Shown: positions 11,473 through 56,100, counted from the stretch's first letter. The stretch is 64,000 bases of DNA from Paludibacteraceae bacterium (GCA_051878345.1 JBJEJX010000074.1:13389-77388); one strand, 5' to 3'. Numbers and translations: made by a program. The notes: generated by a model from the letters alone, not told the origin.

Positions 11473-13593
11473 ATGAAACGATTATCCATTCTTTTGCTGT
11501 TGGCGCTATGCACCGCAGCCACCGCTTTCGCCTACGACTTCCAATCCGGCGACCTCTACTACAACATCACGAGCGACACCACCGTGGAAGTGAGTACCGC
11601 CAACTACCAAGGTCTAACCTCCGCCACCATCCCCGCAACCATTACCTACAACGGCACTACCTACTCCGTAACAAGCATTGGAGACAAGGCGTTCCTCGAT
11701 TGCTCCTCCCTCACCTCCGTCACCATCCCCAACTCTGTAACAAGCATTGGGAACTATGCTTTCAAAAATTGCTCAGAGCTAACAGAGTTTACTATTCCTG
11801 AAAATGTCAAGTATATTGGGAATCGAGTCTTTGAAGGATGTTCGGGTATTACTTCCATTATATGGAACGCAAGGAATTGCCAAGATAGGTGGAAAAATGT
11901 TTATTATTATTCAGACCTTTTGTTTTATGGAATATATCCGCAAATTACTTCATTTACTTTTGGCGAGACGGTTGACTCTATTCCAAGTTATCTATGTTAT
12001 GGAATGTCGAGTCTCTCTAACATCACTATACCAGAAAACATCAAGTATATAAGCGGAAGTGTATTCGAATACTGCACAGGACTGACTGTGGTAGAGTGGA
12101 ATGCCGTCCATTGCTCCAATGATGTAGGAGATGGTAGCGGAAGAATATGGCTTATTTTCAAGAATGCCAATGCTCATATCACCTCTTTCACCATAGGGGA
12201 GAAAGTAGAGGTCATACCGGGTACGCTTTGCGATGGTCTATCCGAACTAACTTCCATCTCTATCCCCAATGGTGTAAAAACAATTGGAAGTCATGCTTTC
12301 CGCGATTGCACAGGCTTGACCTCCATCAGCATTCCGAAAAATGTATCTTCTATATATGGAGCAGCCTTCCAAGGTTGTACAAACATCACCTCTATCGCTA
12401 TTCCGAAAAATGTGCGATTGATATCCCCTTATACTTTTGCAGATTGTGTGAACCTGTCTTCCATCGAAATGCCCAACGATATAGATACAATCGGGCGTTA
12501 TGCTTTTTCGGGTTGTAGGAGTTTAACTGATTTTAGCCTGCCAACAGCCACAACAACGATAGGCACAGGTTGCTTCTATAACTGCTCGAGTCTTACCTCA
12601 TTGCTACTTCCCGAGAGTGTAACCACGGTGAATGACTCGGCTTTCTATGGTTGCTCTGGTTTAACCAAATTAGTCTGCCAATCACATGTTGAGAACGCCG
12701 GCAAACAAACGATTATCGGATGTATTTCTTTGGATACGATATCCATCTTTGCACAAGCCTTTGATGTAACGGAAAGTAACTGGCCATACATGCCCAAAAA
12801 CATCCGCTATATCAAAGTAACAGGCGGGGAACTGACAGACAACGCTTTCAATGTGATACTGCGTAACTATAAAGTTTTGAGTACCTTAGACCTTGCTGCT
12901 GTTACCAATACCACTATCTCAGACGAGGCTTTCAAAGGCTGCTACAACTTGCAGACCTTGCCACTGCCTGCTGAACTGACCGCTATTCCTTACATGGCAG
13001 TAGCCGAATGTGTTAACCTGCAATCCGTCACTATCCCCGCCACCGTTACCGATATAGCGCAGCGTGCCTTCGAGAACTGTCGCAGCCTGTCCGCCGTAAC
13101 CTTTGAGGACGGTATCGCGTTGGAGCGCATTGGCGGCTGGGCATTCTACAACTGCCACGACTTGCAGTCTATCGCTATCCCCGAAGGCGTTACGGAGATA
13201 GGCAATGCCGCTTTCTACGGCTGCAACTATCTGCAAGACCTTGCTCTGCCGAGCACATTGCGCAAGATAGGCGACAACACTTTCGCCCTCTGCTCCAAAC
13301 TGCAGAAGATGCATGTGGGGGCTATGGTGCCGCCTGCGGTGGAAAGCAAGACTTTCCTTGATGTGTTGCGGACTATTCCCGTGATAGTGCCCGACGAGGC
13401 GGTGGAGGACTACAAAGCCGCAACTGTTTGGCAGGAGTTCAACATTGTAGGCGAATCCAATGCCCCGATGAGCATTGAGAACACCCGCAGCCACGGCACA
13501 CAAGGCGTGCAGAAACTCCTCCGCAACGGAAGGGTGCTTATCCTCCGCAACGGCGTAACCTACGACATGATGGGTCAGACGCAGGAAAAATAA
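11473..13593 (+). CDS. BspA-type leucine-rich repeat surface protein
   Basis: 706 aa with a signal peptide (MKRLSILLLLALCTAATAFA) and many IP..V..IG..AF..C..LTS repeats. Its C-terminal tail LLRNGRVLILRNGVTYDMMGQ is shared with 53187..56444. Confidence 0.85.
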   Translation: MKRLSILLLLALCTAATAFAYDFQSGDLYYNITSDTTVEVSTANYQGLTSATIPATITYNGTTYSVTSIGDKAFLDCSSLTSVTIPNSVTSIGNYAFKNCSELTEFTIPENVKYIGNRVFEGCSGITSIIWNARNCQDRWKNVYYYSDLLFYGIYPQITSFTFGETVDSIPSYLCYGMSSLSNITIPENIKYISGSVFEYCTGLTVVEWNAVHCSNDVGDGSGRIWLIFKNANAHITSFTIGEKVEVIPGTLCDGLSELTSISIPNGVKTIGSHAFRDCTGLTSISIPKNVSSIYGAAFQGCTNITSIAIPKNVRLISPYTFADCVNLSSIEMPNDIDTIGRYAFSGCRSLTDFSLPTATTTIGTGCFYNCSSLTSLLLPESVTTVNDSAFYGCSGLTKLVCQSHVENAGKQTIIGCISLDTISIFAQAFDVTESNWPYMPKNIRYIKVTGGELTDNAFNVILRNYKVLSTLDLAAVTNTTISDEAFKGCYNLQTLPLPAELTAIPYMAVAECVNLQSVTIPATVTDIAQRAFENCRSLSAVTFEDGIALERIGGWAFYNCHDLQSIAIPEGVTEIGNAAFYGCNYLQDLALPSTLRKIGDNTFALCSKLQKMHVGAMVPPAVESKTFLDVLRTIPVIVPDEAVEDYKAATVWQEFNIVGESNAPMSIENTRSHGTQGVQKLLRNGRVLILRNGVTYDMMGQTQEK

Positions 13594-19475: not shown

Positions 19476-19507
19476 TTTGCATATTTAAAAAAAAAGCAGT
19501 ACCTTTG
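19476..19507 (+). promoter_or_regulatory. Promoter upstream of tRNA-Pro (-33 TTTG, -7 TACCTTTG)
   Basis: TTTG at 19476-19479 and TACCTTTG at 19500-19507, leaving a ~155-nt leader before the tRNA. Confidence 0.6.
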
Positions 19508-19539
19508 CACCCGCTTTTTAGGCGTAGTTGTCGTATTGG

Positions 19540-21270
19540 TTATCTTTTGTTGAGCGTTGTTATGTTCATTGTTTGTGCACAGGATATGTGTGCGGAACGT
19601 AGAAATGACGAACAATAATCGGTGGGTATGAAATGAAGAACGGCAACTGACGAATACAAAGTGCGAGAAGTAGCGCAGTTGGTAGCGCACCACGTTCGGG
19701 ACGTGGGGGTCGGGCGTTCGAGTCGCCTCTTCTCGACATACGGCGATTCCGAGAAATCGGAGTCGCTTTTTTCATTACTATCACCACTGTATTTCGCTGA
19801 TAATCTTGAAGATACACGAAATACCTCATTTACTACAGGTGTTCGATAATTCATATTTTTTTTATTATAGAACACTCCTTCTGGGAATATCAGCTCTTGC
19901 AATTTCTGTCGACCATGAAAATCTAACTCTTTCCAGCAATCTTCTAATCTACAAGCCATTAGCTCTGCAAACTCAGCCATCTTCTTGGTGTTCGATAGTG
20001 ATTCCTCCACTTCCTCCAGTTGTAATTGAATTTTGTTCTTCTCATCCGTCAATTTTTTTATTGCGATATTATATGTGTTTTGGTTAATATCGCCGATGGC
20101 AAACCTATATTCTACATTTTCTATTTGCGTTTCTATTTCTGTTAGATTCCTTTTGACTAAAGCACTATTTTGGGCTTTGGCACTATAATACTGTGTCATC
20201 TCATTATTGATAATCTCATTAACAATTGGAAATAATTCAATCTTGATTTGATACTGTGCTAATAATGTTTCATAATTTTCATGTAATTCCTTGGCGGATA
20301 TGTTTGCACAGCACCCCTTGGTATTACATTTGTAGTAATAATACGTTTTGTTTTGTCTGGAACGTGTATAACCAGTTAATGCCCCTCCGCAATCTTCACA
20401 AAATACATGCCTCTTCAGGGGGAAGGGTATTGTTTCTTTAGCCTGCGTATAGCCTATATGAGCTGCTGAATTTACTTGCTCAAAAGTAAGTTTATCAATA
20501 ATAGCCTCATGATTTCCTTGGATAATAGCCCCATCGCCCAACCTGGGATGAACTATCAATCCACAATAGAAAGGATTTTTTAAGATTTTGTTCAAATGTT
20601 TTGCTGTAACAGTTAATCCTATTGAATGTAATTTATTAACAATTTCCACTTCCCTTATTCCTTGCGCGCGCCAAATCCATGCTTTTTTTAAGATTTCGCC
20701 TTCTGGAGTAATACTAATCGTTGTAACTCCACCTATTTTTTTTCTTTCATAACCTAATGGAAGTTGAAACGGCCAGTTCCCTCTTTCTAATTGTGCTTGC
20801 TGTCCTTGCCTAATCTTATCGGTTCGCATAGCATTATCAAAATTCCCGAGTAGTAAAGAAAGATTCTCAACAAAGTCCCCAACTGAAGAATCTGGATCCG
20901 AGGCTTGAGTTGCCGAAATTACATATATTCCGTTTGCTTTCAATTTAGTTTTTGTTACAATTGCTTCGTTTGCACGGCTAAACCTATCAAAGGAATATAC
21001 AAGTATTATATTTACTTCTTTGTCTTTCAACGCCAATTGAATCATCTCTTTGTATAATTCACCTTCCGTCTTACCGCTTTCGTGCTGTCCCCCACAATAA
21101 TACTTAATATAAATACCATTATCAGCGGCATATTGTTCACAACGCTCCTTTTGAGTATTAAGAGAGCAATTCTCCTTTTCTTGTCTCTCACTAGATACTC
21201 GTGTCCAAACTATAGCCACTTTTCTAACTAATTTGCTGTATTGTATAGTTTCTCTTCTAACTTTGCTCAT
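19540..21270 (-). CDS. Large serine recombinase (native C-terminus probably near 19775; ORF runs on through host DNA)
   Basis: Resolvase catalytic N-terminus (VAIVWTRVSSERQ, SFDRFSR), recombinase domain, Cys-rich zinc ribbon (CEDCGG...YYKCNTKGC) and coiled coil. The last ~75 codons are antisense to the tRNA-Pro terminator, the tRNA and its leader. Confidence 0.85.
   Translation of the reverse strand: MSKVRRETIQYSKLVRKVAIVWTRVSSERQEKENCSLNTQKERCEQYAADNGIYIKYYCGGQHESGKTEGELYKEMIQLALKDKEVNIILVYSFDRFSRANEAIVTKTKLKANGIYVISATQASDPDSSVGDFVENLSLLLGNFDNAMRTDKIRQGQQAQLERGNWPFQLPLGYERKKIGGVTTISITPEGEILKKAWIWRAQGIREVEIVNKLHSIGLTVTAKHLNKILKNPFYCGLIVHPRLGDGAIIQGNHEAIIDKLTFEQVNSAAHIGYTQAKETIPFPLKRHVFCEDCGGALTGYTRSRQNKTYYYYKCNTKGCCANISAKELHENYETLLAQYQIKIELFPIVNEIINNEMTQYYSAKAQNSALVKRNLTEIETQIENVEYRFAIGDINQNTYNIAIKKLTDEKNKIQLQLEEVEESLSNTKKMAEFAELMACRLEDCWKELDFHGRQKLQELIFPEGVFYNKKNMNYRTPVVNEVFRVSSRLSAKYSGDSNEKSDSDFSESPYVEKRRLERPTPTSRTWCATNCATSRTLYSSVAVLHFIPTDYCSSFLRSAHISCAQTMNITTLNKR
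19664..19736 (+). tRNA. tRNA-Pro (anticodon CGG)
   Basis: Hand-folded cloverleaf. Acceptor CGAGAAG/CTTCTCG, D arm GCGC-AGTTGGTA-GCGC, anticodon arm CCACG-TTCGGGA-CGTGG, T arm GGGCG-TTCGAGT-CGCCT, discriminator A. Total 73 nt. Confidence 0.85.
19743..19772 (+). terminator. Intrinsic terminator after tRNA-Pro
   Basis: gcgattccga-gaaa-tcggagtcgc followed by tttttt. Confidence 0.7.
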
Positions 21271-21629
21271 GTTTACCTATCTTTTTTTGCCATAGATCAC
21301 AGACAATTATAGCATACAGATACAAAGAACTTAATACCCTTTGTTGCTCATCAGAATCTGTGATACCTGCTTTTAATAATAGATTGTTATACTTCTTATT
21401 ATCCAACATACAACACGACCATTATTTTCGTGCTGTGGGTTAGAAAACTGGTAGCAATGTTCATATAATATATCCTCATAGTAATACTGTTATTTGTGAG
21501 CAAATATAGGACTTTTATTTGAAATAAGAAATAGCTATGAATAATTTTTTTGAACAATAATGAAAATAAATAGGATATTTGTAATTGTTATCCGTTTTTT
21601 TTAGAACAGCAAAACAAATTTCTGCCTAA

Positions 21630-22280
21630 TCAGATTCTTTCAAAGATTTTTTTGACACGTTGAACTGTAGAAATTCCTTTACCAGTAATTTTTGCAACAT
21701 CACGTATTGACATACCTTTTTTAAGATAGCCAATAATATCCTCATGCTTCCGTATCACTTCCTCTCTACTCATTGTTGAACCCTTTCGCCTCCCGACAAC
21801 TTTCTCACCCTGATGTTGAGCTCTAAAATTATCATATCCGCTTTTTAATCTAAATTGAATACTCTCCCGCTCTATTTGTGCGCATGTAGATAGAGTAGCC
21901 AGCATGATGGGAGCAAAGACACTTGGCTTACCCTCGTCATCAAGCAATAAAAAATGTTCTTTTTGTAGGTATAGATTAATTTTATAATCCACAAACGCTT
22001 TCACAGTTTGGAGGACGTCAAAAGCGGAATGTCCTATTCTGCTTAATTCTGAACAAAGACAAATGTCTATGTTATTTTCTATGGCATACTCCATCGCTGT
22101 TCTCAGCACAACTCGATCTTGATTTTGTTTCCCGCCAGAAATATACTCTTCAAAAACACTCCTCACTTCATAGCCCATACTCATGGCATAGTGTTGCAAA
22201 TCCAACACCTGTCTATCTGTAGATTGTCGATTTCTCTCAATAGAGGACGAAACTCTTGCATAAATAATAGCCGTTTTCAT
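21630..22280 (-). CDS. Small serine recombinase (resolvase/invertase family) with C-terminal HTH
   Basis: 216 aa with the MKTAIIYARVSSS catalytic-Ser motif and the C-terminal HTH MSIRDVAKITGKGISTVQRV. Confidence 0.85.
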   Translation of the reverse strand: MKTAIIYARVSSSIERNRQSTDRQVLDLQHYAMSMGYEVRSVFEEYISGGKQNQDRVVLRTAMEYAIENNIDICLCSELSRIGHSAFDVLQTVKAFVDYKINLYLQKEHFLLLDDEGKPSVFAPIMLATLSTCAQIERESIQFRLKSGYDNFRAQHQGEKVVGRRKGSTMSREEVIRKHEDIIGYLKKGMSIRDVAKITGKGISTVQRVKKIFERI

Positions 22281-23185: not shown

Positions 23186-23283
23186 TTGAGTTATGTCGCC
23201 CCGTTGGGGCTTACTTTAGGGGGGGGACTTCCCCACGTAGGGACGAGTCCCTACGCTGTTTTATGTCGCCCCTTCGGGGCTTT
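23186..23283 (-). repeat. Triple-hairpin element, copy B
   Basis: gccccgttggggc, cgtagggacgagtccctacg and gccccttcggggc hairpins. The reverse complement aligns with 11331-11425. Confidence 0.75.
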
Positions 23284-23880
23284 CGTTCTCTTCCATATCC
23301 TCTCGCGCAAAAGACAAAGTATTTTCCGTAGGGTCGGAGGGTGGCAGGTGATATGTAGTTTCTTGGATGCCGTTGTGGACTCACCTATCACGTTCAGCGT
23401 GAAAGTCTTATTGCGCCAAATACGAACGGATAGGCTTGTTTCACCATGCAGTTGGCTTTTCGAGATGCCATGGATGGCACATTCGCCGTTTTTTGTTTTC
23501 CACGAAAGACGGATGATATCTCCCCACTCCACTTCCGTTTTATCTGCCTCAAATGAGTAGATATACGCATCGTTGTTACCCAAGCGATAGGTATATTTTC
23601 GGTATCCGGCGGATGAACAGAAATAGAGCACAATATCTTCCTGACCGCCCCCGATAGGTATCTCCTTTTGCTTATTGGTTGTGAGATAAAATGTTCTTTC
23701 TCCACATACCGCAAATGCTGAGCGTATATTGGTACCATTCCAACGGAGAATAGCATTCGTTTTCGGCGCACCGTTCAGGTTTTCCCATGCTATGGACACG
23801 ACAGGCCATGTTGCACCACAAACCTCACATATCGCAGATGCATCATTGTTTGTTGATTCACAATGTTTACATGTCCACAT
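23251..23880 (-). CDS. Zinc-ribbon protein with beta-rich C-terminal repeats
   Basis: 209 aa with C4-x2-C7-x10-C18-x2-C21 at the N-terminus. Starts 11 nt downstream of the kinase gene. Its 3' end overlaps repeat copy B. Confidence 0.6.
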   Translation of the reverse strand: MWTCKHCESTNNDASAICEVCGATWPVVSIAWENLNGAPKTNAILRWNGTNIRSAFAVCGERTFYLTTNKQKEIPIGGGQEDIVLYFCSSAGYRKYTYRLGNNDAYIYSFEADKTEVEWGDIIRLSWKTKNGECAIHGISKSQLHGETSLSVRIWRNKTFTLNVIGESTTASKKLHITCHPPTLRKILCLLRERIWKRTKAPKGRHKTA

Positions 23881-23891
23881 TGCTTTCGCAT

Positions 23892-25124
23892 TTATTTGAT
23901 GAGAGTTCCTTTTAATTTCGGTTTTACAGATGCTTCAGCGGCAGAAGCCGAAGATGATTTTACCTTTAGTGAATGCTTATCCGGCTCTACGTGTTCTGGC
24001 TTATCCAGCGGCTTATCTATTTCTGACTCTTTCGATGAAGTAAGTACTGCATCAGAAGCATCTTTACGCAACTTTAAGACCAGCGACTTTGGCAATTTCA
24101 AGCGTGGAAACACAACCGGCAGTGATTTGTTTCCTTTGGGCTTGCGTTCTTCTTCTGTCATGGTAGCATAGTCAGGACGAGGGCATCGAGCGTCTTGCTT
24201 AGCGGGAACAGGCACTCTGGAGATGTCTATCTTCTTCAGTTCATTAAACACTTGCAGAATATTCGGTCGATGATTCGGATCCTTCTCAAGCATAGATACC
24301 AAAAGAGATTTTACGCCTCTTGTTATATTCTCGCTATAAGGGATTCCGACCGATTCTCCGGCATTGGTTGCCGCATAGGTATATATGTACTTGGATTTGT
24401 CGAATAAGGGTCTCTCGCCGCTGAGATATTCGCAGAAGATGATGCCGAGTGAATAAATATCCGCTTTTGTGGTTAACACACTGCCGGGGAGCTGTTCCTC
24501 TTCATCGGATATATAGTCAAATACTTCGGGTGCGTAATACTCAGGAGTGCCGACAACAGCCTGTCGGTCGGCAGGAGGAGCGGCTTCGAAATAGGAGTCA
24601 TCGAAATCAATCAGTTTGGTGGTATAAATACCTGATGCTGTTTTCTTGATGAGTATATTCTCCGGTTTCAAATCTCCGTGTACAATGTGGTTATTGTGAA
24701 GAATACGGAGGCTGGAAGCAAGGCTCCTCAAGATGATAATAATTTCTTTGAAAGACAGTTTCGCCACTTCTTTCGGGTTCATGGTAGTGGTGTCCACCCA
24801 CTCACTAATCTTGTAGTAGGAAGTATCATGGAGCATCAGTTCTTTCGCGCAGACAAGGTTGCTTCCCTCGGAGCATGCCGCATTGGTAATCCTCATTATG
24901 TTGCGTTGATGCGCTTCGAACTCAACGCACATATTCCGCTTATATGCTTTTGTTTTCTCACTTCCCGGGCTATCCGCAGTCGGATATTTGGGAGAGAGAA
25001 ACTCTTTTATGAACCAACGTTTCCCGTCTTTGGTTGCCGAAGTTATTCTGCTCCGTCCTCCGGCGACCCGAAAATCTGCTTCGAGCAAGTAGCGTCCAAG
25101 ATATTTTCCTTTTCCAAGTGTCAT
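23892..25124 (-). CDS. Ser/Thr protein kinase (Hanks type) with low-complexity C-terminal tail
   Basis: 410 aa with WFIKEF (Lys), HGDLKPENIL, IDFDDS and GTPEYYAPE. Confidence 0.85.
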   Translation of the reverse strand: MTLGKGKYLGRYLLEADFRVAGGRSRITSATKDGKRWFIKEFLSPKYPTADSPGSEKTKAYKRNMCVEFEAHQRNIMRITNAACSEGSNLVCAKELMLHDTSYYKISEWVDTTTMNPKEVAKLSFKEIIIILRSLASSLRILHNNHIVHGDLKPENILIKKTASGIYTTKLIDFDDSYFEAAPPADRQAVVGTPEYYAPEVFDYISDEEEQLPGSVLTTKADIYSLGIIFCEYLSGERPLFDKSKYIYTYAATNAGESVGIPYSENITRGVKSLLVSMLEKDPNHRPNILQVFNELKKIDISRVPVPAKQDARCPRPDYATMTEEERKPKGNKSLPVVFPRLKLPKSLVLKLRKDASDAVLTSSKESEIDKPLDKPEHVEPDKHSLKVKSSSASAAEASVKPKLKGTLIK

Positions 25125-25156
25125 ACCAAGTAGGAATTTATAGTTTTATCGGTTTG

Positions 25157-26185
25157 TCAGTTCTCTGAGCCAAGCAGCAGTTCTGCCCCTTCCTTATAGG
25201 CATTCCATATCGTATCCATTGCTTTGGGGAGTTCGTTCATCTGCGATTGATAGAGCTCGTATGGTCGGATAAACGCTTTCATTAGACATTGATGCCGTTT
25301 TACGAGTGCTTTTTTCCAATCCTCGAACGATAATCCAATCATGGTGATGGCGAAGGAGTAGTCATCGCCTGATATATCCAACAGCATGTTATCCATATGG
25401 TTTACCCAATCGTGTACATTGTCGGACATATACAACGTGTCGAGCAGCAGTTTTTCGAAATGCATCGGTGTCATCACATACCCGAAACATCCGTCTCTGC
25501 ATGATATGAGAATCACCGGCGCATCGGACAAGAATTGTAACTTGCTGATATAAAACGAGTCGCTTTGAGAAATAGCATTGCTCAAAGGCGGGTCGTTATG
25601 CAAATTGAATAAGGCATCTCCTCCCCCTCTGACATGGTCTTGCGAGGCTTGCAACAGCCCTTCTTCGCGTAAAATATAGTTACGCGAATCACCAGCCCAG
25701 TAACTATAGATATCTATGCCGCCTTTGCTCGTAGCCCACGACATCATCGCCATGGTGGTGGGCAAGATTTTGGACATCGTGGATCGGAGTTTTGACGGAA
25801 CGATATGTAGGTCTTCTTTGATATTCTCCATCGCAGCCTTAATGGTATTCTCTAAGGAGGTTGTATCAAAGTTCATGCCGTTACCACTATTCTCTTCCGC
25901 GAACGCCAACGTAGTTTCCCTAACGAGACGGGAGGCAATATATGCGTCTGTATGTATTTCTCCTGCTGGCAATGTTCTTATGGCACTTCCGGCGCCCCCC
26001 ATTCCGTCAAACGTAGCCAAAACGCCACAGGAGAAATCCGAAGAGAGCCATAGGATCGGATCGGCATCTTCTCCGGCATTTTCTTTTCGGGCATGATTTT
26101 TCGAGTCCGAGAGCACCTTGGTTACATCCGACATTGATAGTCCCGACCTGTCGGGACGACAAACAGAATAAGCAGATAGTATCAT
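25157..26185 (-). CDS. PP2C-family protein phosphatase-like protein
   Basis: 342 aa with FDGMGGAGSA, YWAGDSRNYILRE, QDH and SCRDGCFGY. The start may instead be the internal Met at 26134. Confidence 0.7.
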   Translation of the reverse strand: MILSAYSVCRPDRSGLSMSDVTKVLSDSKNHARKENAGEDADPILWLSSDFSCGVLATFDGMGGAGSAIRTLPAGEIHTDAYIASRLVRETTLAFAEENSGNGMNFDTTSLENTIKAAMENIKEDLHIVPSKLRSTMSKILPTTMAMMSWATSKGGIDIYSYWAGDSRNYILREEGLLQASQDHVRGGGDALFNLHNDPPLSNAISQSDSFYISKLQFLSDAPVILISCRDGCFGYVMTPMHFEKLLLDTLYMSDNVHDWVNHMDNMLLDISGDDYSFAITMIGLSFEDWKKALVKRHQCLMKAFIRPYELYQSQMNELPKAMDTIWNAYKEGAELLLGSEN

Positions 26186-26200
26186 GTCTCAGCATCCCCA

Positions 26201-26926
26201 TTAAATAGAGTTCATAATTGCATCCAAGATTTGGGTGTAGTCCGTATCGGACAATCCATCTCCTGCTTTAGCGGGCCAGTGGGTTACCTCGTTCCATGTG
26301 GAGGAAATAGTTGACCAAACTTCACATTCGGGTGCAAACAGACACAGTCGCTTGGAACTTTTCGGCATAAGTGCGCCTTGAGGCGCATCCCACATATCGG
26401 TGAGCTCGTCCATATCTTTCGGCATTTCGGACGGGTATTTTGCTCCGGCGAACTCACGTCCTTCCTCAAACGTTAGTGGAGTCACATCGGTGAAGAGCAC
26501 AATAATGTGTCGCCGTTTGTTTCCTCCCATGTCCCAATCGGAACGCATGGCTTCAGTCAATGCTTCCAATCCGTTTTCACGCCAACCTTGCGAAGAAGAC
26601 ATTGAGCCTCCCTTAGCATCCAGATGGTCCACATACGCTTTGAGCTGCCCTTCTTCGTTTTCCATTTGTTCTTCATTGCTCAGAACAAAGAACTCAGATT
26701 TTTTTAACGCATCTTGATTATCGTATTCAAAATTTTTGAAACTGATAACTCGAATACGCAGTTGGCTCACCGATTTCCCTTTCTCGTTAGCCACACGAAC
26801 TAAGTCGGGATAGAAACGGAGGATGTTTTCCTTAACCGTACTAAGGAGCGAACCCATAGAACCTGTGGTGTCCACCACAAAAACAATGTCAACGTGGTAC
26901 TTAAGACCAAAATTATTTTCTGCCAT
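26201..26926 (-). CDS. von Willebrand factor A domain protein (TerY-like)
   Basis: 241 aa. MIDAS-like VDIVFVVDTTGSMGS with a later LFTD strand. Confidence 0.75.
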   Translation of the reverse strand: MAENNFGLKYHVDIVFVVDTTGSMGSLLSTVKENILRFYPDLVRVANEKGKSVSQLRIRVISFKNFEYDNQDALKKSEFFVLSNEEQMENEEGQLKAYVDHLDAKGGSMSSSQGWRENGLEALTEAMRSDWDMGGNKRRHIIVLFTDVTPLTFEEGREFAGAKYPSEMPKDMDELTDMWDAPQGALMPKSSKRLCLFAPECEVWSTISSTWNEVTHWPAKAGDGLSDTDYTQILDAIMNSI

Positions 26927-28060: not shown

Positions 28061-28297
28061 TTAGCATCCGGGGTACCAGCAATAGCCTCCGTCGTCCGAA
28101 TGTTGCATGCCTGACGATGTCTGAGCGATAATGCGGTTGCCCCGTACCATCAAGTCGTAGAAGTGGTCAGTGTACGATGTGTGTCGCGTCTGCCAATTGT
28201 AATAATTGCAGGAATTCAAGGTACCTGCCTCCAAGATTCGATCATTGTTCGAATCAATACGGATAATTTCCTCTCCGTACTGAACCATACTCGACAT
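28061..28297 (-). CDS. Small hypothetical protein with one Asp-box-like motif
   Basis: 78-aa ORF. SDDGGYCW fits the SxDxGxxW Asp-box pattern. A -7 box lies about 210 nt upstream. Confidence 0.4.
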   Translation of the reverse strand: MSSMVQYGEEIIRIDSNNDRILEAGTLNSCNYYNWQTRHTSYTDHFYDLMVRGNRIIAQTSSGMQHSDDGGYCWYPGC

Positions 28298-28508
28298 AAA
28301 GCAAATAATAGTTTATTAAAAATACACATAAAGGGAGTTCCATCTTCTGCCGACACATCGTAACTGCGACCAACTCTGTGTCATTAGAAAAAAGAACTTC
28401 CCTGTTATTCTTTTCGCTTAATAACTCCTTTTGCTCATCGACGTCGCAGGTCTCACAAAAGAAAGCACCCGCTTTCGTTCAGAAATCGTTCCTGTTCGAA
28501 AGCGAGTG

Positions 28509-28516
28509 CAAAGGTA
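28509..28516 (-). promoter_or_regulatory. Candidate -7 box (TACCTTTG on minus strand) inside the island
   Basis: The plus strand reads caaaggta within gcaaaggtactgc, the same context as the chromosomal promoters. No well-spaced -33 element is seen. Confidence 0.45.
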
Positions 28517-28600
28517 CTGCGTTTGCTCAAAGTTGGCAAGTGAGAGTTATGGGAAAGTTTGAAGACGACTCCCTGTTAAGAGAGGTTTTGAGGTCTCCAA

Positions 28601-29758
28601 TTATTTATACAAGATAGCGAAAAGTCTATCAAATTCTTTCTTGGAGATTTTTCCGGACTCCCACGCTTCGGAGATGCTTGGGTAGTCGGGTTGGGCTTGG
28701 AGCATTTTAGGATAATACCTACCATAGAATGCCATAAAATCTGTTTCAATGGTTTGTGTTTCCGCGGGATATAGTTCTTGGAAATGAAGATGCGATTGAT
28801 TCAAACTATCGCAATACGCAGAGGATATCCTGCCGACAAATTCACTATACGGATAGGGTGGGTTTTGAACGCACGTACAATACTTTTCGTATAAACGCAC
28901 ATACTCCTTGTGGGCATCTGCAGCATTAAATCCCTGCTGTTCGGTTGCAGTTTGAGGAGCAGGAATAGTCCAACAGAATATCCATACCAAGATTGCACCC
29001 AACAACAAGAGACAACTTATTATTGCTCGCCAAGCAGTAAGTGTTATTGCTTTGCGCAGTGCTGCAACCGTCTCGTATCTACGGTGTGGATTGGTTTGCC
29101 GGCATTTCCTTACTACCCGTCGGTATCTATGCGGAAATAGCAGTTGTATGATTTCCCCCAAAGCATAGATGTCGGCAGTAGGTGTTAGGCGGACGCTTTC
29201 CCCTGATTTCTGCTCTGGTGCGGCATATTGGGAAGTGTAGCCGATATTGGTGGCAACATACTCATCCTTATCTGCCATACCCAAGTCGATCAACCGAACA
29301 TGTCCATCGGTGGTAACAAGGATGTTTTGGGGCTTAATATCTGCGTGGATAATCTGTTTAGAGTGGAGATAATCTATCGCATCCAGCAGTTCATTCAGTA
29401 CCTTTTTGCGTTCAGTTATCGACCGATGGGGTAACCATTTGTCGATAGGTTGTCCATCCACATATTCCATGACAATAACCCAGCCTAAGTCCGAATAATG
29501 TTCCATCCGCCACACTCGCAAGATATGCGGGTTCTCGAGTTGCTGAAGTAGGTGATACTCTCGTTGTAGTTGGCTGAGCAACACTCCTTGATACGGATGA
29601 GAGGGCTGGATGGCTTTGAGAATTAGGCGTTGTCCGTTTTGGTGGGCGCAATAGATACGATGATGTTCCGTCTCGAACATCAGGGTGCATTGATTGACAG
29701 GGGCTGACTCCACTGAAGAAAAGTCCCTTGAGAATCCGGATGTAGTTTCTTCGCTCAT
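28601..29758 (-). CDS. Membrane-anchored Ser/Thr protein kinase with C-terminal extracytoplasmic domain
   Basis: 385 aa with LILKAI (Lys), HADIKPQNIL, IDLGMAD and YAAPE, one TM helix (IISCLLLLGAILVWIFCW) and then about 120 aa. Confidence 0.8.
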   Translation of the reverse strand: MSEETTSGFSRDFSSVESAPVNQCTLMFETEHHRIYCAHQNGQRLILKAIQPSHPYQGVLLSQLQREYHLLQQLENPHILRVWRMEHYSDLGWVIVMEYVDGQPIDKWLPHRSITERKKVLNELLDAIDYLHSKQIIHADIKPQNILVTTDGHVRLIDLGMADKDEYVATNIGYTSQYAAPEQKSGESVRLTPTADIYALGEIIQLLFPHRYRRVVRKCRQTNPHRRYETVAALRKAITLTAWRAIISCLLLLGAILVWIFCWTIPAPQTATEQQGFNAADAHKEYVRLYEKYCTCVQNPPYPYSEFVGRISSAYCDSLNQSHLHFQELYPAETQTIETDFMAFYGRYYPKMLQAQPDYPSISEAWESGKISKKEFDRLFAILYK

Positions 29759-30381
29759 TTGATTTTCACTTCACTAAGACCGTTACCCCGTCCTATCACA
29801 TACTCTCCCAAGTTTTGACCATGACGGGTTAGGTTGGTTAAAATAGCAGGTACCCCCACAATCATTTGTGAGCAATCAAACTCGTCTTCTGCCAATAGCA
29901 TGGTAGAGTGCGTTACCTGCTCAATACAAAAATGTTGATTGCCATCATATCTGACCTGCATTATTCTATTGGGTTGCCATACAATAAGCACTATCTGACC
30001 CACTGGTAGCGTTCTCATATCCACTCCGGCACAAGTGGCGACCCACCCCGAGTCTGCTTTTTCGTTGTTTGTTTGGTCAACAAAAATATCCCAATCAGGA
30101 TACCCTACATAACGACACAGAATATCCAACGACGAACGGTATATCGTTTGGGAATTGGTATGCCGCACTCCCCAAATACGGCGGATGGTATCAGCATTGA
30201 GTGCATTCTTGAGTTCTTCTTCGGCAAATAACTGTATCCGAAGTGTGGAATTCATATGCCCGTACTTCTTTTCAACAGCCATCCGCAGACGCGCAATAGC
30301 AGGGTGGGTATCTGGAATTTTTGATGGCATAACGGTTAGTTTTTGTATGGGGATATTCAAATTTCCAAGTCTCGACGGCAA
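29755..30381 (-). CDS. Hypothetical protein, possible N-terminal HTH, translationally coupled to the kinase
   Basis: 208-aa ORF whose stop overlaps the kinase start (ATGA). The segment TIRRIWGVRHTNSQTIYRSSLDILCRYVGYPDW resembles an XRE-like HTH, but weakly. The start codon is uncertain. Confidence 0.5.
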   Translation of the reverse strand: MPSRLGNLNIPIQKLTVMPSKIPDTHPAIARLRMAVEKKYGHMNSTLRIQLFAEEELKNALNADTIRRIWGVRHTNSQTIYRSSLDILCRYVGYPDWDIFVDQTNNEKADSGWVATCAGVDMRTLPVGQIVLIVWQPNRIMQVRYDGNQHFCIEQVTHSTMLLAEDEFDCSQMIVGVPAILTNLTRHGQNLGEYVIGRGNGLSEVKIK

Positions 30382-30440
30382 AATTACAACTATTTTTCGA
30401 TATAGCCAAAATTCATGTGTTTATTTGCGAATTTTTTCTT

Positions 30441-31196
30441 TTAATACTCTATAAGGGTGCACGCTTCAGGGATCTTGCCGACTAACGCTAATGCCTTCGG
30501 TGCTCTGATGGTACATTGGCAACCTTCGAAAGCCCTATCTCCAATGCTTATTACACCATTGGGGATGGTAATGGAGGTAAGAGAAGAGCAATCTTCGAAA
30601 GCCCTATCTCCAATGCTTGTTACGCTATTGGGAATAGTGATGGAGGTAAGAGCGGAGCAACCTTCGAAAGCCCTATCTCCAATGCTTGTTACACCATTGG
30701 GGATGGTAATGGAGGTAAGAGAAGAGCAATCTTCGAAAGCCCTATCTCCAATGTTTGTTACGCTATTGGGAATAATGATGGAAATAAGGGCGGAGCAACC
30801 AGAGAAAGCATAGTCGCCTATTTTGACAACACCATTCGGAATTATAAAGGCATCCCCGTGGTTAAGATGCTTACAACCACAAAAAGCATCATCGGGGATA
30901 ACTCTTAATGACGAAGGACTCTTAAACTCAATGCAAATTTCATTGCAACTATTTGCATCTATTCCCTCAAACTCTTCTAACGAACTTGGGAACTTAAAAG
31001 TCGTCCAATCAGGTATTTCGCAAAAATCAGATTTACGTATTGATTTGACCCCTTCCGGAATAATATAATCACTCTCAAACTGCCCATCAAAACTATCTGA
31101 CGTTACATGAGTTATTGGGCGCAAAGCCATCTTAAAATAGTCGCACTCATTAGGTGTCCATAGATACTTACCACTCTCTATTGTATCTATATCCAT
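30441..31196 (-). CDS. BspA-type LRR protein without signal peptide; frame stays open upstream to about 31486 with no ATG
   Basis: 251 aa from the first ATG, with near-identical 23-aa repeats (IPN.VTSIGDRAFE.CS.LTSIT). My translation shows the frame continuing ...IGYDKNAPINFRHIRVIKIYEDADDFEYKF... upstream. Confidence 0.7.
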   Translation of the reverse strand: MDIDTIESGKYLWTPNECDYFKMALRPITHVTSDSFDGQFESDYIIPEGVKSIRKSDFCEIPDWTTFKFPSSLEEFEGIDANSCNEICIEFKSPSSLRVIPDDAFCGCKHLNHGDAFIIPNGVVKIGDYAFSGCSALISIIIPNSVTNIGDRAFEDCSSLTSITIPNGVTSIGDRAFEGCSALTSITIPNSVTSIGDRAFEDCSSLTSITIPNGVISIGDRAFEGCQCTIRAPKALALVGKIPEACTLIEY

Positions 31197-31387
31197 AAAA
31201 TGCCATTTATAAGCATCTTTAAGTCTGTATATTCGGACTATTCCATTGGAAACGACTACTCTATGGGCTATGAACGGGTATTCAGAAAAATCATAATCAA
31301 AATCCTCTACACTGGTGAATTCGTAGGAAATTCTATCCGACCAAATTTCTACTGCTACTTCTAATGGATAGTATGTACATGCTCCGT

Positions 31388-32644
31388 TTATATAATAATA
31401 ATCAAATTTGTACTCAAAGTCATCCGCATCTTCATATATCTTAATAACTCGAATATGCCTAAAATTAATTGGAGCATTTTTATCGTACCCAATGTGGCGG
31501 CGGCACCTCCTAAGCCTGCAAGCGAGCCCACGTTCTTGCCTGTGTACATATCGCTCGCCAAGGTCTGGATATTATTCATCGTGAATTGGAAACCGAAGAG
31601 AATAATCGCCATGCAACATACAGCAACCATCGCTTCTTGCACAAAAGCTACATAAATAAGAGCCGGCAAGGTGATACAAGCACCTATTAGAATGGAGGTC
31701 TTCCGTGCAAAATTGATGCTTTTTCCGCTACTTACCAAATGGCTTGACACCCATCCGCCTGCTATAGAGCCGAGCGCGGCGCCTACATATGGTATCCACA
31801 TGTGGGCAGCCAACGCCTTTAGGTCCATTTGGTATTTCTGCCCAAGATAAATAGGTAACCATGTAACGAACATCCACCATACAGGATCTAGAAAGAATCG
31901 TGCTAAAATGACGGCATAACTCTTCGGCTTCACCAACAACTGCCCCCAGCTCAAACCCTTGTCCTGCTTGATGGTAGTCTCCGGCTGACCGCTTGTGATG
32001 TACTCGCGCTCCGCATCCGTAATCATTGGATGTTCTTTCGGACCTTTCTTGTTCAATACCAACCAGGGAATAACCCATAAAGGTGCAAGCAAACCAATAA
32101 TGACAAATGTTAGTTTCCAACCTACTGCTGTGCAGATAAGCGCAATCAAGATAGGAGCCAATATAGCACCGACCGATGCTCCGGCATTGAATAAGCCTTG
32201 TGCCATGGCACGCTCTTTCTGTGGGAACCACTCGGCATTGCTCTTCACCGTACCGGGCCATGGACCGGCTACGCCAAGTCCTAATCCGGCACGAAAACCG
32301 CATATTGACTTTACGCCCCCCGCCAAACTCATCAGCGCATCGGAGATACCCCATACGAGTGCGGATACGGTGAAACCTTTGCGAGTTCCAATCTTGTCAT
32401 ATAGTTTGCCCGAGAGCATCTGCGAGATACCATAAGCTACCATGAAGAACATGTTGATATAGGCAAACAGTTCTTTGCTGCGGCTGTTGAACTCCGCTTC
32501 GCTCAGTCCTTCGGCATCAATCAGCCCAAGATCGCGCACAATCTCCGCCCACATGATACCAAGGGTATTGCGGTCAAGGTAGTTGATAATCGTAACAATA
32601 ACGATTAACGAAAGCACCCACCATCTTAATCCTCTGATTTTCAT
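31388..32644 (-). CDS. MFS transporter (hexuronate/ExuT-like), C-terminal end apparently replaced at the island junction
   Basis: About eleven TM helices are recognisable. The last ~33 codons (KMLQLILGIFELLRYMKMRMTLSTNLIIII) are encoded by AT-rich island DNA. Confidence 0.7.
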   Translation of the reverse strand: MKIRGLRWWVLSLIVIVTIINYLDRNTLGIMWAEIVRDLGLIDAEGLSEAEFNSRSKELFAYINMFFMVAYGISQMLSGKLYDKIGTRKGFTVSALVWGISDALMSLAGGVKSICGFRAGLGLGVAGPWPGTVKSNAEWFPQKERAMAQGLFNAGASVGAILAPILIALICTAVGWKLTFVIIGLLAPLWVIPWLVLNKKGPKEHPMITDAEREYITSGQPETTIKQDKGLSWGQLLVKPKSYAVILARFFLDPVWWMFVTWLPIYLGQKYQMDLKALAAHMWIPYVGAALGSIAGGWVSSHLVSSGKSINFARKTSILIGACITLPALIYVAFVQEAMVAVCCMAIILFGFQFTMNNIQTLASDMYTGKNVGSLAGLGGAAATLGTIKMLQLILGIFELLRYMKMRMTLSTNLIIII

Positions 32645-36047: not shown

Positions 36048-36299
36048 CTTGCTCTATGTATAACCAACTATTGTCTATTTTTTTTAATGTGCTTTTTAAT
36101 ATCTTTTCTCACTTCGGTCCGCAAAGGTACAAAAAAAAAAGAATATATACAAATTTTTTGGCAATAATGTTAGGAAATAAAATGACGAATATCCCTTGTG
36201 TAGTGTCTGCTGGCAAGTATAATTCTGTGTGCAAAGTTCGTCAAATTTATTGAAAAAGCAAAATTTAAGATGTTTTCAAGTTCAATTTTTCTCTTGCCC

Positions 36300-53186: not shown

Positions 53187-56100
53187 TTATTGAATCGTCT
53201 CGCCCAAAACGGTGTAGGTCTTGTCGCCGCGGAGGATGAGCACTTGTCCGTTGCGAACCACCTTACGCAAGCCCTTTGCCTCGTCGGCTGCAGTGTTGAG
53301 ATTGCCCGTAGGAGCATCGTACTCCGTCATGTTGAAGAACTCGCTCCAGTACTCATCGGCTTGGTATAGCCCGATGGTGCCACGAGGCACAAAGACGGGT
53401 GTCTCACGGTCAACGTCCTCAAAGGTCTTTGCCTCGATGGTCGGCGGCACGAGGGCGTTGACATACATCATTTGCATCCTCTCGCAACCTGCGAAGCCGT
53501 TGTCAGCAATCTTCTTCATGGTAGAGGGGATGACCAGTTCGTTGAGGTATGTGCAACCGTAGAAAGCAGCCAAACCTACTTCTTCCACGCCTTCGGGCAA
53601 AGTGAGATTGCGTAGGCTGTGGCAGTTGTAGAACGCCCAGTCGCCAATAGTCTCTACCTTGTTGCCCGCGAAGGTTACGCTCGTCATCGAACGGCAATCC
53701 TCGAAAGCACTCACGCCGATATAGGTTACTCCCGCGGGGATAGTGATAGCGGACAGATAGCGGCAACTGCGTAAAGCGTTATCGTCTATTACCTCCAAAT
53801 CATTTGGCAAGATATAGGTTCGAAGTACATCCGAGTGGTATGTGATGGCTATCCGAGACATATCGGTATTGCTTGCAGCCGACAAGTCCACATACGGGCA
53901 GGTAGAGTAACTCATAGATGCCTCACCATTAGTGATAATCAAGGTGTCTTGTATATCTAACTCACTGACAAATCCGGCAGGCACTTTTAAGTAGCGAACT
54001 TTCTTTCCAGCCATAGCCCAGCCATCTACTTTGGCTGTATTTCCAAGATACTCAATGCGGTCCATGGAACCTCCAAATCCTCTGAAGCAACCATAACCCA
54101 TAAATCCGACGGACGCAGGAATGATAAGTTCTTTCACAAGATATGTGGGATAGTTGTAATCAATTGTTGTGAAAGCGTTCTCTGCAATAGTCGTAATGCC
54201 ATCCGCGAATTGGATTCTACATAAAGTATCTATGCGCTCACGGTAAGTATCCGATTTCCATGCAGGATAGGTCTCCAAGTCCATGGCTCCTGTACCTGTA
54301 ATGGAAAGTTCTTTGGTAGTCTTGTCCCATGTCCAATAGAGGTCTGTACCACATTTGCCGCCGAAGTCTCCTGCTGCGAAAGTGGCGTAGAGCGTGGTGT
54401 CGGAGATGAGTCGGAAAGTGCGCTCGGGACGTCCATTGCCGTCTGACCACTCAACGAAATGGTAACCCTCATTTGGAGTAGCGGTAATCGTTACGTAGTC
54501 GCCGGTATTGTATGCGCCACCACCGCTAACCGTACCCATGGAAGCACACGCAGCAGTTGGTGCGACTACAACTGAGGCAGGAACGATTTCGGCGAACAAT
54601 GCTACCACGATGGTATCGGAATAAATATCCATACTCAGATAGGTGTCAGTCTCTCCGTTGCTCCAACCTACAAAATAGTAACCATCATAAGGATAGGCTC
54701 TGCGGCTGATGTAGTTGTCACAGTCGTATATTTTTCCCTCAAAACCGCCATTAGATAAATAGCCGCCTTCGCCTGCGGTAATGCTTATTTCGTATGATTT
54801 TGCATCAAACAGCGATTCTATCACGGTGTCAGAAGTTATGGTAATAATGCGGTCATATTTCTCCGTATTGCCATCGCTCCAACCGAGCCAATTGCCGCAA
54901 CTACCGTTTTCACTAATTATGACCTGCATACCTTCCAGTACGTTCTTTGTGGTATTCCCCCAAAAATCGTATGTATAAACAGAATTGCTATTATAGTCCA
55001 CATATTGAATATCCCCTTCTATGGAATACCCTTTTAGTACTACTTTGTGGAAAGGAACGGCAGTAAAATCAGCAGTGAGTTTTGTGTCTTCGGTAAGTGC
55101 GAGGGTGCGAGGATTCTCTGTGTTACCATCACTCCATTGGGAGAACTTGTAGTAATAAGTATTGTTAGATGCTGCGTAAATAGTAGCGATATTATTGTCG
55201 CAATCGGAGTACAATACATATGCATATCCTCCCGGTGTTGCAGACAAATCCAATGGATAAGACAATCCGTATAGGTTCATATACTGCCATATATCTGCCT
55301 CATTGTAGGCACTTAGTGCGGAGCAAAGAACACATATTTTTGCATCGGACTTAAACGTATTACTTTTTATGGTTGGAGGTGTCATACTTTTTAGATACAC
55401 TTGTTTACAACTGCTGAAAGCATATTCACCAATTTCGGTAACGGTAGAAGGAATGGTGACAGAGGTTAGGTCAGAGCAATTGTCGAAAGCACAAGAGTTA
55501 ATAGTTGTTACCCCCTCGGGGATGTTTACATACCTAAGAGCAGGGCAATCGGCAAAAGAGTATGCTTCAATCCTTGTGAGATTAGAAGGGATGGTCACAG
55601 AATCCATATTACAACCGACAAAAGCCCGCTGCCCAATTGATGTGATGCTTTCTGGAAGGACTAAATTCGTTAACCATGTACAGCCATAGAATGTAGCTAC
55701 TCCTATGCTGTCCACACCATTGGGAATGCTAATAGTATGGAGTGAGGTATTATTGCAAAATGCATAGTTCCCAATCTTAATTACATTAGCAGGGATAGTC
55801 GCATCCGTAACTAATACATCGTTGATATACAAATTCTTAGAACGTACAGCAGGGTTTGCGTAAGAATCTGCAAAACGAATAGCACACCACCCGGCTAAAT
55901 CACCTGTGTAGTTTGTTTTTACCAAACGGTTACCGTAAAACGACTCATATCCAAAGGCATCTTCGCCTATTTCGGTTACACCACTACCGATAGTAACGGA
56001 AGTTATCGCATTGTTGTAATAAAAAGCAGAACTACCAATGCTTGTTACACTGTTGGGTATGGTAATTGTGTATAAGGGGCAATCACTAAATGCAGAATTA

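Follow-up and report, generated by a model that had tools for sequence, protein, structure and literature searches.

A recurrent gene pair of gut Bacteroidales encoding a membrane Ser/Thr kinase and an unannotated two-domain protein

We analyzed a stretch of 64,000 nucleotides, here called the window, from a Paludibacteraceae metagenome-assembled genome (GCA_051878345.1, JBJEJX010000074.1:13389-77388). The region under study holds three minus-strand open reading frames (ORFs), at 30441-31196, 29755-30381 and 28601-29758, which encode a leucine-rich repeat (LRR) protein of the BspA type, a small protein that we call F192, and a membrane Ser/Thr kinase of the Hanks type (Table 1). Their NCBI product names are 'leucine-rich repeat domain-containing protein', 'hypothetical protein' (201 aa) and 'serine/threonine protein kinase', respectively. 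An earlier interpretation of this DNA (the original prediction) regarded the three genes as a second signalling module of an island that encodes two kinases, and the ORFs and motifs that it described are all in place. Our main finding is the coupling of F192 with the kinase. The pair recurs in gut Bacteroidales and is hitherto undescribed, as literature searches returned no paper describing it.

Table 1. Features of the studied region and its surroundings in the window
Feature	Coordinates	Strand	Basis
F192, 191-aa two-domain protein of an unannotated family	29755..30333	(-)	ORF, family search, AlphaFold2 model
Single-pass membrane Hanks-type Ser/Thr kinase, 385 aa	28601..29758	(-)	ORF, Pfam Pkinase
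Transmembrane (TM) helix of the kinase, residues 245-263	28970..29026	(-)	Kyte-Doolittle 19-residue window, mean 2.61
C-terminal domain of the kinase, ~120 aa, without family match, predicted extracytoplasmic	28604..28969	(-)	topology
Bacteroidetes-type promoter motif TTTG-N20-TAATTTTG, LRR/F192 intergenic	30379..30410	(-)	pattern search
LRR_5 (BspA-type) ORF, 251 aa as annotated, internal-Met start, apparent remnant of a longer gene	30441..31196	(-)	Pfam
Start-less in-frame extension of the LRR frame up to the junction	31197..31481	(-)	open-frame statistics
Major facilitator superfamily (MFS) transporter gene, 3'-truncated, native over 31481-32644, marks the junction	31388..32644	(-)	orthologue comparison
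TerY-P-like triad (context, not in the F192 module): kinase 23892-25124, PP2C-like 25157-26185, vWA 26201-26926	23892..26926	(-)	Pfam, NCBIfam

F192 and its partner kinase

The frame of F192 is open over the whole of 29755-30381, and the 208 aa of the original prediction are reached only if a TTG start codon is used. The start is probably the ATG at 30333, which gives 191 aa, because both the homologues and the promoter motif point there. The motif sits ~45 nt upstream of this codon. At the other end of the gene, the stop codon overlaps the ATG of the kinase as ATGA (29755-29758), as predicted. A word-indexed search with F192 returned two proteins, one identical and one, from a koala-gut metagenome, with 61% identity. 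A profile of these two, run exhaustively with HMMER against 1.84 billion cluster representatives, brought up 851 clusters (50% identity) at E <= 1e-3, of which 357 reached E <= 1e-10. The members are nearly all of 185-205 aa and align end to end. No Pfam, NCBIfam or PADLOC model matched the window protein, nor did any Pfam or NCBIfam model match 60 family members; a PDB sequence search found no relative, and every named member that was looked up is called 'hypothetical protein'. An odd gene pair is thus turned into a defined and testable family, with ~850 clusters of an unannotated protein of ~190 aa.

The genomic setting of the family was examined in 73 loci. With a four-sequence F192 alignment as query, a scan of GTDB species, each represented by one genome, contributed 71 of these, essentially all from Bacteroidales (Paludibacteraceae, Barnesiella, Bacteroides, Prevotella, Rikenellaceae and Muribaculaceae); the koala-gut contig (L001) and the window itself complete the set. 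ORFs were called in all of them and labelled with phmmer, and signal peptides were judged by a hydrophobicity heuristic.

An AlphaFold2 model of F192, made from a 60-sequence alignment, has a predicted local distance difference test score (pLDDT) of 93.3. It shows a five-helix N-terminal domain (residues ~1-90), a flexible linker, and a C-terminal domain (~104-191) in the form of a small, eight-stranded beta-barrel. The N-domain is basic, with a median isoelectric point of 8.7, and the barrel is mildly acidic (6.05). Three motifs are conserved, T48-L-x-R51-x-W53-G54 and T67-L-D-x-L-x-x-Y-x-G76 in the N-domain and W118-x-P-x-R122 in the barrel. Conserved Ser/Thr positions are 29, 48, 67, 94 and 142; Ser94, located in the disordered linker, is kept in 93% of the members.

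The kinase scores 107.1 bits against the Pfam Pkinase model (PF00069, residues 39-206), well above the cut-off of 31.7, and belongs to the Hanks type by this measure. It displays the motifs HADIKPQN (residues 138-145), IDLGMAD and YAAPE, and all of the catalytic residues are present (K48, E67, H138-A-D140-I-K142-P-Q-N145, D158-L-G160, A180-P-E182 and R227). The same columns are kept in 50-55 of 55 partner kinases, the exception being the glycine of D-x-G (42 with G, 12 with S). The glycine-rich ATP loop GxGxxG was not found in the window kinase, which reads FETEHHRIY there, and the Pfam match begins at profile position 21. The relatives retain only S-x-x-G at this site. Degenerate glycine loops are common among active bacterial kinases, and the loss lowers the certainty on kinase activity, not on Hanks membership. 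The window kinase, without this loop, is moreover of the non-RD type (HAD).

A single TM helix, followed by a C-terminal domain of ~120 aa without a recognized family, had been proposed for the kinase. Hydrophobicity bears out the former and Pfam, in which the domain has no match, the latter. A word-indexed protein search with the C-terminal 150 aa gave zero matches, and it did not recover the sequence of the query itself either. The helix is found at the same place, ~105 residues past the HxD motif, in nearly all partner kinases. The architecture common to all is a short catalytic domain, the TM helix, and then a lineage-variable tail of 20-250 aa, many of the tails measuring only 20-40 aa. 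Because a kinase domain requires cytoplasmic ATP, the catalytic domain should be cytoplasmic and the tail should lie outside the cytoplasm. Among the loci labelled, the C-terminal domain of the window kinase is common only to the kinases of its closest relatives, L001-L005. A 602-aa kinase at L082 (10582-12390), whose F192 relative is 43% identical, has two tandem copies of it behind a proline-rich linker; this duplication within one protein identifies the domain as a discrete module.

The promoter motif ahead of F192 conforms to the pattern TTTG-N17-23-TAnnTTTG, whose consensus we take to be that of Bacteroides promoters. The pattern occurs 17 times in the window, compared to 1.1 occurrences expected by shuffling. 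The same search of the window revealed no motif belonging to the LRR ORF. The intergenic DNA around the F192 motif is kept in L079-L081, where the upstream gene is a different one. With its own motif, the F192-kinase pair could be transcribed without relying on the LRR gene, and the module in the window is, as judged from its sequence, intact with its own promoter. The matches to the pattern lie mostly just upstream of genes or tRNAs (e.g. 19476-19507, 30379-30410 and 36122-36153), and the pattern is thereby a convenient guide to where transcription units lie in this Paludibacteraceae genome.

Conservation of the gene pair in Bacteroidales

The original prediction coupled the small protein to the membrane kinase on the basis of the window. 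The neighbourhood analysis indicates that this coupling is far more general. A homologue of the catalytic domain of the window kinase is present within 62 of the 73 loci, and in 56 a homologous single-pass membrane kinase immediately adjoins F192. The adjacent kinases occur in four orientations: 23 downstream and co-directional, 23 convergent, 7 divergent, and 3 upstream and co-directional. In 16 of the 23 downstream co-directional cases the two genes overlap by 1-26 nt. An adjacency that outlives inversions and rearrangements in this manner argues for functional coupling.

Closer comparisons lead in the same direction. On the koala-gut contig the order of LRR, F192 and kinase genes is repeated, with F192 61% and the kinase 51% identical to those of the window. 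In L079-L081, the DNA shared with the window, at 94-95% identity, comprises exactly F192, the kinase and the flanking intergenic sequence (30348-28330), and a different gene lies upstream. The ratio of nonsynonymous to synonymous substitution rates (dN/dS) is 0.10-0.17 for F192 (window versus near-identical copies in other metagenomes) and 0.12-0.13 for the kinase (window versus L073 and L079), values that indicate purifying selection on both genes. The two proteins also co-diverge, their pairwise distances being strongly correlated (r = 0.91, Mantel p = 0.001), although some correlation is to be expected between co-inherited neighbours. We hold it likely that F192 and the kinase are functionally coupled.

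The LRR gene and the rearranged surroundings

The LRR ORF has LRR_5 repeats far above the Pfam threshold (PF13306: 159.5 bits, cut-off 27.7, E = 4.5e-47), four of them near-identical units of 23 residues, and resembles the BspA-type surface proteins in this regard. It differs from them in that no hydrophobic N-terminus or signal peptide was found on it, in its missing N-terminus, and in its length, 251 aa compared to 486-1375 aa for the LRR proteins linked to the pair elsewhere. The absence of a signal peptide from this protein, and its presence on the LRR_5 paralogs at 11473-13593 and 53187-56444, had been correctly noted; however, the ORF appears to be 5'-truncated. Beyond its annotated start, the frame runs through 95 codons with 0 stops and 0 ATG/GTG/TTG codons, compared to 8 and 14 stops in the other frames, and only 0.03% of shuffles stay open over this distance (P = 0.0003). 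The extension (94 aa) has no Pfam match, and a search with the N-terminal region plus extension returned the annotated ORF itself and no homologue. As no full-length homologue is at hand, the case for truncation is made by the open-frame statistics and by the junction described below. The LRR protein forms a singleton cluster in a collection of 15 billion proteins. Within the gene (30519-30863) are 69-nt tandem units of which alternate copies are 96% identical, an effective period of 138 nt, which suggests a very recent repeat expansion or gene conversion.

The junction is marked by the MFS gene. This gene matches intact orthologues of 433 aa at 97% identity up to residue 388 and no further, and the final 30 codons are read from AT-rich DNA of unrelated origin. 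At the DNA level, homology with five intact MFS loci (L074-L078) stops exactly at 31481. Those loci run on into a gene for a short-chain dehydrogenase/reductase and genes for alginate lyases, which were not found past the junction in the window. With the LRR frame open to 31481 and the MFS homology ending at 31481, both genes are cut at the same junction, within 5 bases of the end (31486) that the original prediction gave to the module. We therefore read the junction as the point of truncation, and the LRR gene of the window as what appears to be a 5'-truncated rearrangement leftover. As an alternative to a true rearrangement, the junction is possibly a metagenome mis-assembly. For annotation, the consequence is that the LRR and MFS genes of the window are truncated and should not be taken as functional parts of the island. 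The truncated MFS gene belongs to a locus for alginate/uronate utilization.

The locus L073 is 93% identical to the window over 30533-23261. Its upstream LRR_5 gene encodes 643 aa, and only the last ~30 codons match the window LRR gene at the DNA level; a radical-SAM/SPASM cluster lies beyond. Two serine recombinases of the window are missing from L073, where tRNA-Pro directly adjoins a 151-aa gene. By this layout, the arrangement in the window is a rearranged or truncated version, or possibly an assembly mis-join. A simple serine-recombinase island extending from tRNA-Pro to 31481 was considered and rejected, as L073 carries these genes beside tRNA-Pro but no recombinases, and beyond the LRR gene it runs on into the radical-SAM cluster. 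The recombinases (576 aa and 216 aa; 19540-22280, GC 33-38%), absent from the otherwise collinear L073, look like a separate insertion of ~3 kb; the ORF of the large one overruns the tRNA-Pro gene (19664-19737) on the opposite strand.

We next consider what LRR genes do near the pair in other genomes. Of the 73 loci, 27 have an LRR_5 gene no more than four genes away from F192, and 10 have one immediately upstream on the same strand. It occupies the slot just upstream of F192 in 10 of 58 cases, compared to 21 of 498 other slots within six genes (odds ratio 4.7; Fisher p = 5.5e-4, uncorrected for ancestry, with perhaps five independent lineages represented). Eight of the ten immediately upstream LRR proteins carry both a signal peptide and a lipobox Cys; these eight are lipoproteins and so extracytoplasmic. 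In L082-L084, the closest relatives outside the island, the upstream gene encodes a DUF285/LRR protein of 1038-1054 aa, and the 1054-aa protein of L082 has a signal peptide. The original prediction allowed that the LRR gene might be a truncated BspA remnant without linkage to kinases. The truncation is borne out; the linkage remains, in that LRR_5 genes are enriched upstream of F192.

In a model that follows the original prediction, the LRR protein without a signal peptide would act as a sensor in the cytoplasm and hand its signal on to the kinase, with F192 as an adaptor, in a second sensor-transducer unit of a TerY-P island. The enrichment just described is in its favor, as are the order of LRR, F192 and kinase genes repeated in L001, L073 and L082-L084, the likewise signal-less LRR proteins of L001 (486 aa) and L073 (643 aa), and the presence of a TerY-P-like triad alongside in the window, L073 and L001. 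Yet we deem this model improbable, and for the window copy the sensor role is unsupported. The LRR gene of the window is 5'-truncated and has no promoter motif, and in the 94-95% DNA-identical copies of the pair (L079-L081) its place is taken by a gene for a MORN-like protein of 734 aa that has a signal peptide, in L073 by a different LRR gene. Divergence is also much faster in the LRR proteins than in the pair: those of the window and L001 share ~30% identity, compared to the 61% and 51% of F192 and the kinase, and the LRR does not co-diverge with them. The lipoprotein signals on most upstream LRR proteins do not fit a cytoplasmic location. Chance proximity would not be rare with three LRR_5 genes in 64 kb of the window genome, and in most family loci the four genes to either side of F192 include no LRR gene.

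Other recurrent neighbours of F192 are Mfa-like fimbrillins and a secreted family of ~330 aa that resembles outer-membrane proteins (OMPs). The latter adjoins the partner kinase in 35 loci (L006-L066; e.g. L051 9132-10124 and L048 7496-8530) and is missing from the window; no Pfam model covers it, and one member has a weak match to an OMP beta-barrel. The common theme in the vicinity of the pair is cell-surface proteins, not a cytoplasmic LRR. A split receptor-kinase is one further model. In such an arrangement, extracytoplasmic LRR lipoproteins or surface repeat proteins would dock on the outer tail of the kinase, the kinase would signal to F192, and the window copy would have lost its co-receptor. 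The co-directional LRR lipoprotein genes, with small gaps or overlaps to F192 in several lineages (L028, L030 and L061), agree with it, and so do the variable kinase tail outside the cytoplasm and the secreted OMP-like proteins encoded beside the kinase. A precedent is QseG-QseE, in which a lipoprotein controls a sensor kinase from the periplasm (PMC6075780). The model is nonetheless unlikely, since the LRR gene is missing in many loci, many tails have a mere 20-40 aa, and the association fits surface proteins as regulated targets equally well.

Downstream of the pair lies the TerY-P-like triad (Table 1). The original prediction correctly counted two kinases, one PP2C-like and one vWA protein, and one LRR protein in the island, with the reservation that the PP2C and vWA matches fall below the curated Pfam and NCBIfam cut-offs. 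The TerY-P triad is composed of a TerY-like vWA protein, a PP2C phosphatase and a Ser/Thr kinase (Anantharaman et al. 2012, as summarized in PMC10542128). By this definition the F192-kinase pair is not a TerY-P component, because it is the other kinase (23892-25124) that forms the triad of the window. The two systems share the same variable segment, the triad being 1.7 kb downstream, both have Hanks kinases, and they co-occur in the window and L073, where the triad is kept beside the pair, and in L001, where a divergent triad is found. They differ in that the pair is without vWA and PP2C proteins, and in that its kinase is membrane-bound with an outer domain and is not fused to a zinc ribbon or an oligonucleotide-binding (OB) fold. 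A phmmer search of the 71 genome loci brought up no proteins like the vWA and PP2C of the window; such a search would miss divergent homologues, and it missed the Pfam-detectable triad of L001. As far as the sequences tell, the co-occurrence is seen in one lineage only (window, L073 and L001).

Could the pair then be an anti-phage abortive-infection or defence kinase module that shares a defence island with TerY-P? The PADLOC models PD-T4-6, mad6, MkoA and Stk2 match the kinase (E = 1e-17 to 1e-31), the segment is variable, with the triad and serine recombinases nearby, and TerY-P-like modules have been reported as defence systems (PMC10542128, citing Gao et al. 2020). These matches are, however, limited to generic catalytic residues ~36-205, F192 and the LRR protein matched no defence model in PADLOC, and the wider family resides in ordinary chromosomal contexts, beside surface-protein and housekeeping genes and not defence genes. 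A role of this kind is highly improbable. Membership of the kinase in the defence-kinase families PD-T4-6, Stk2, MAD6 and MkoA was ruled out, as the catalytic domain alone matches; NCBIfam MAD6 gives 74 bits against a cut-off of 460.

Several smaller elements accompany these genes. A 78-aa ORF at 28061-28297, which ends in GGYCWYPGC, is conserved in L073. Between it and the kinase stop, at 28499-28539, is one arm of a 41-nt inverted match (78% complementary) with 19477-19517. The match holds a -7-like box, GTACCTTTGCA, and the copy at 28499-28539 may start a separate transcript of the downstream genes. A 27-nt sequence with GCCCC-N4-GGGGC hairpins has copies at 23191-23217 and 23261-23287, at or just past the 3' end of a 209-aa zinc-ribbon ORF, and these may be terminators. 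L073 (1383-3870) and L001 (5871-9000) encode a radical-SAM/SPASM enzyme, an amidohydrolase_2 protein and several ORFs of 70-80 aa, genes that the window does not have. This cluster looks like one for the modification of peptides of the ribosomally synthesized and post-translationally modified (RiPP) kind.

A putative signalling module and its known counterparts

We lean, by a modest degree, toward the interpretation that F192 and the kinase are a dedicated two-gene transmembrane signalling module, widespread in Bacteroidales, with F192 as the substrate or output. The lineage-variable outer tail of the kinase would receive an envelope or extracellular cue, and the cytoplasmic catalytic domain would act on its cognate cytoplasmic partner, F192. 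The basic, helical N-domain of F192 would bind nucleic acid, with its activity altered by phosphorylation, for which the linker residue Ser94, or else Thr48 or Thr67, is the candidate site. The adjacent genes for surface repeat proteins (LRR_5/DUF285 lipoproteins, MORN-like proteins, Mfa-like fimbrillins and OMP-like proteins) would be plausible regulated targets or outer co-sensors. Phosphorylation of F192, its binding to DNA, and the identities of signal and targets are all points that we infer. That F192 is both a kinase substrate and a transcription factor is a tentative proposal.

Several observations weigh against this interpretation. No kinase is present in 11 of the 73 loci, several of these being short contigs. 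Co-divergence such as that of F192 and the kinase is expected for any two co-inherited neighbours. With neither a glycine loop nor the RD motif (HAD instead), the activity and regulation of the kinase may be atypical. As to F192, a Foldseek search of the PDB with the whole model gave only a weak Sm/Lsm-like match for the barrel (E = 0.019), and such a barrel would suit RNA or protein binding equally. For the N-domain, in which the original prediction saw a possible XRE-like helix-turn-helix (HTH), no HTH model of Pfam or NCBIfam (HTH_3-type) matched the window protein or 60 members, and hhalign of F192 with four manually entered XRE proteins gave a probability of 0.2%, weak evidence given so tiny a template set.

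The comparison with XRE/Cro-type regulators is accordingly a mixed one. The N-domain resembles them in that it is basic and composed of five short helices, and its top structural neighbours in a Foldseek search of the domain alone (pLDDT 86) are Stl (6h4c), Lp1 protein 11 (3b7h) and EspR (3r1f). These matches are weak and not significant (TM-score 0.41-0.44, E 2.5-5.2), and F192 differs from such regulators in its lack of sequence-profile similarity to them. An XRE-like HTH in F192 is a possible assignment, a reasonable but unproven guess.

The lack of a significant HTH signal would also suit a different role, in which F192 regulates or scaffolds the kinase (as an activator, an inhibitor or a pseudosubstrate) and is not a nucleic-acid-binding output. 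The tight adjacency, with 16 overlapping loci, suggests production in fixed proportion, and small SH3/Sm-like barrels often mediate protein-protein contacts. Against such a role are the basic character of the N-domain, its weak structural kinship with HTH regulators, and the nearly invariant T-L-x-R-x-W-G and T-L-D-x-L-x-x-Y-x-G motifs, which could correspond to a recognition helix and the helix that follows it. On balance we find this role rather unlikely.

A bolder version of the scheme, which we offer as a long shot, would make F192 a new class of kinase-dedicated output and join it with LRR lipoproteins and Hanks kinases in a split LRR receptor-kinase pathway. An outer LRR lipoprotein would bind the ligand, the kinase would relay the signal across the membrane, and Ser94-phosphorylated F192 would switch the expression of surface repeat proteins. 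If true, this pathway would be the bacterial counterpart of LRR receptor-kinase signalling in plants, assembled from separate polypeptides. To our knowledge, Ser/Thr kinase signalling in Bacteroidales, which are dominant gut bacteria, is almost unexplored. The surface repeat proteins often encoded near the pair mediate adhesion and host contact, and F192, if it is the output of the kinase, would offer a handle on how the cell surface is regulated in response to outside cues.

The closest parallels in organization are membrane Hanks kinases with a dedicated regulator, such as PknH-EmbR of Mycobacterium tuberculosis and PknT-EcfP of Vibrio. In Xanthomonas citri, the kinase PknS phosphorylates the sigma factor EcfK directly (PMC13147305). 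The F192-kinase pair resembles systems of the PknS-EcfK and PknH-EmbR type in that a single-pass Ser/Thr kinase is encoded beside a small cytoplasmic protein, its presumed target, in a self-contained unit near genes that it possibly controls. The conserved adjacency of such systems is found here as well, in 56 of 73 loci, in four orientations and with 16 overlaps. The pair differs from them in its distribution in Bacteroidales and in the nature of the partner: F192 is no extracytoplasmic function (ECF) sigma factor and has no OmpR, BTAD or FHA domains, but represents a Pfam-less family of ~190 aa with a helical domain and a beta-barrel, whose phosphorylation and DNA binding are at the level of prediction. 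Should F192 be the output of the kinase, it would add a new type of partner to the short list of dedicated kinase-regulator pairs.

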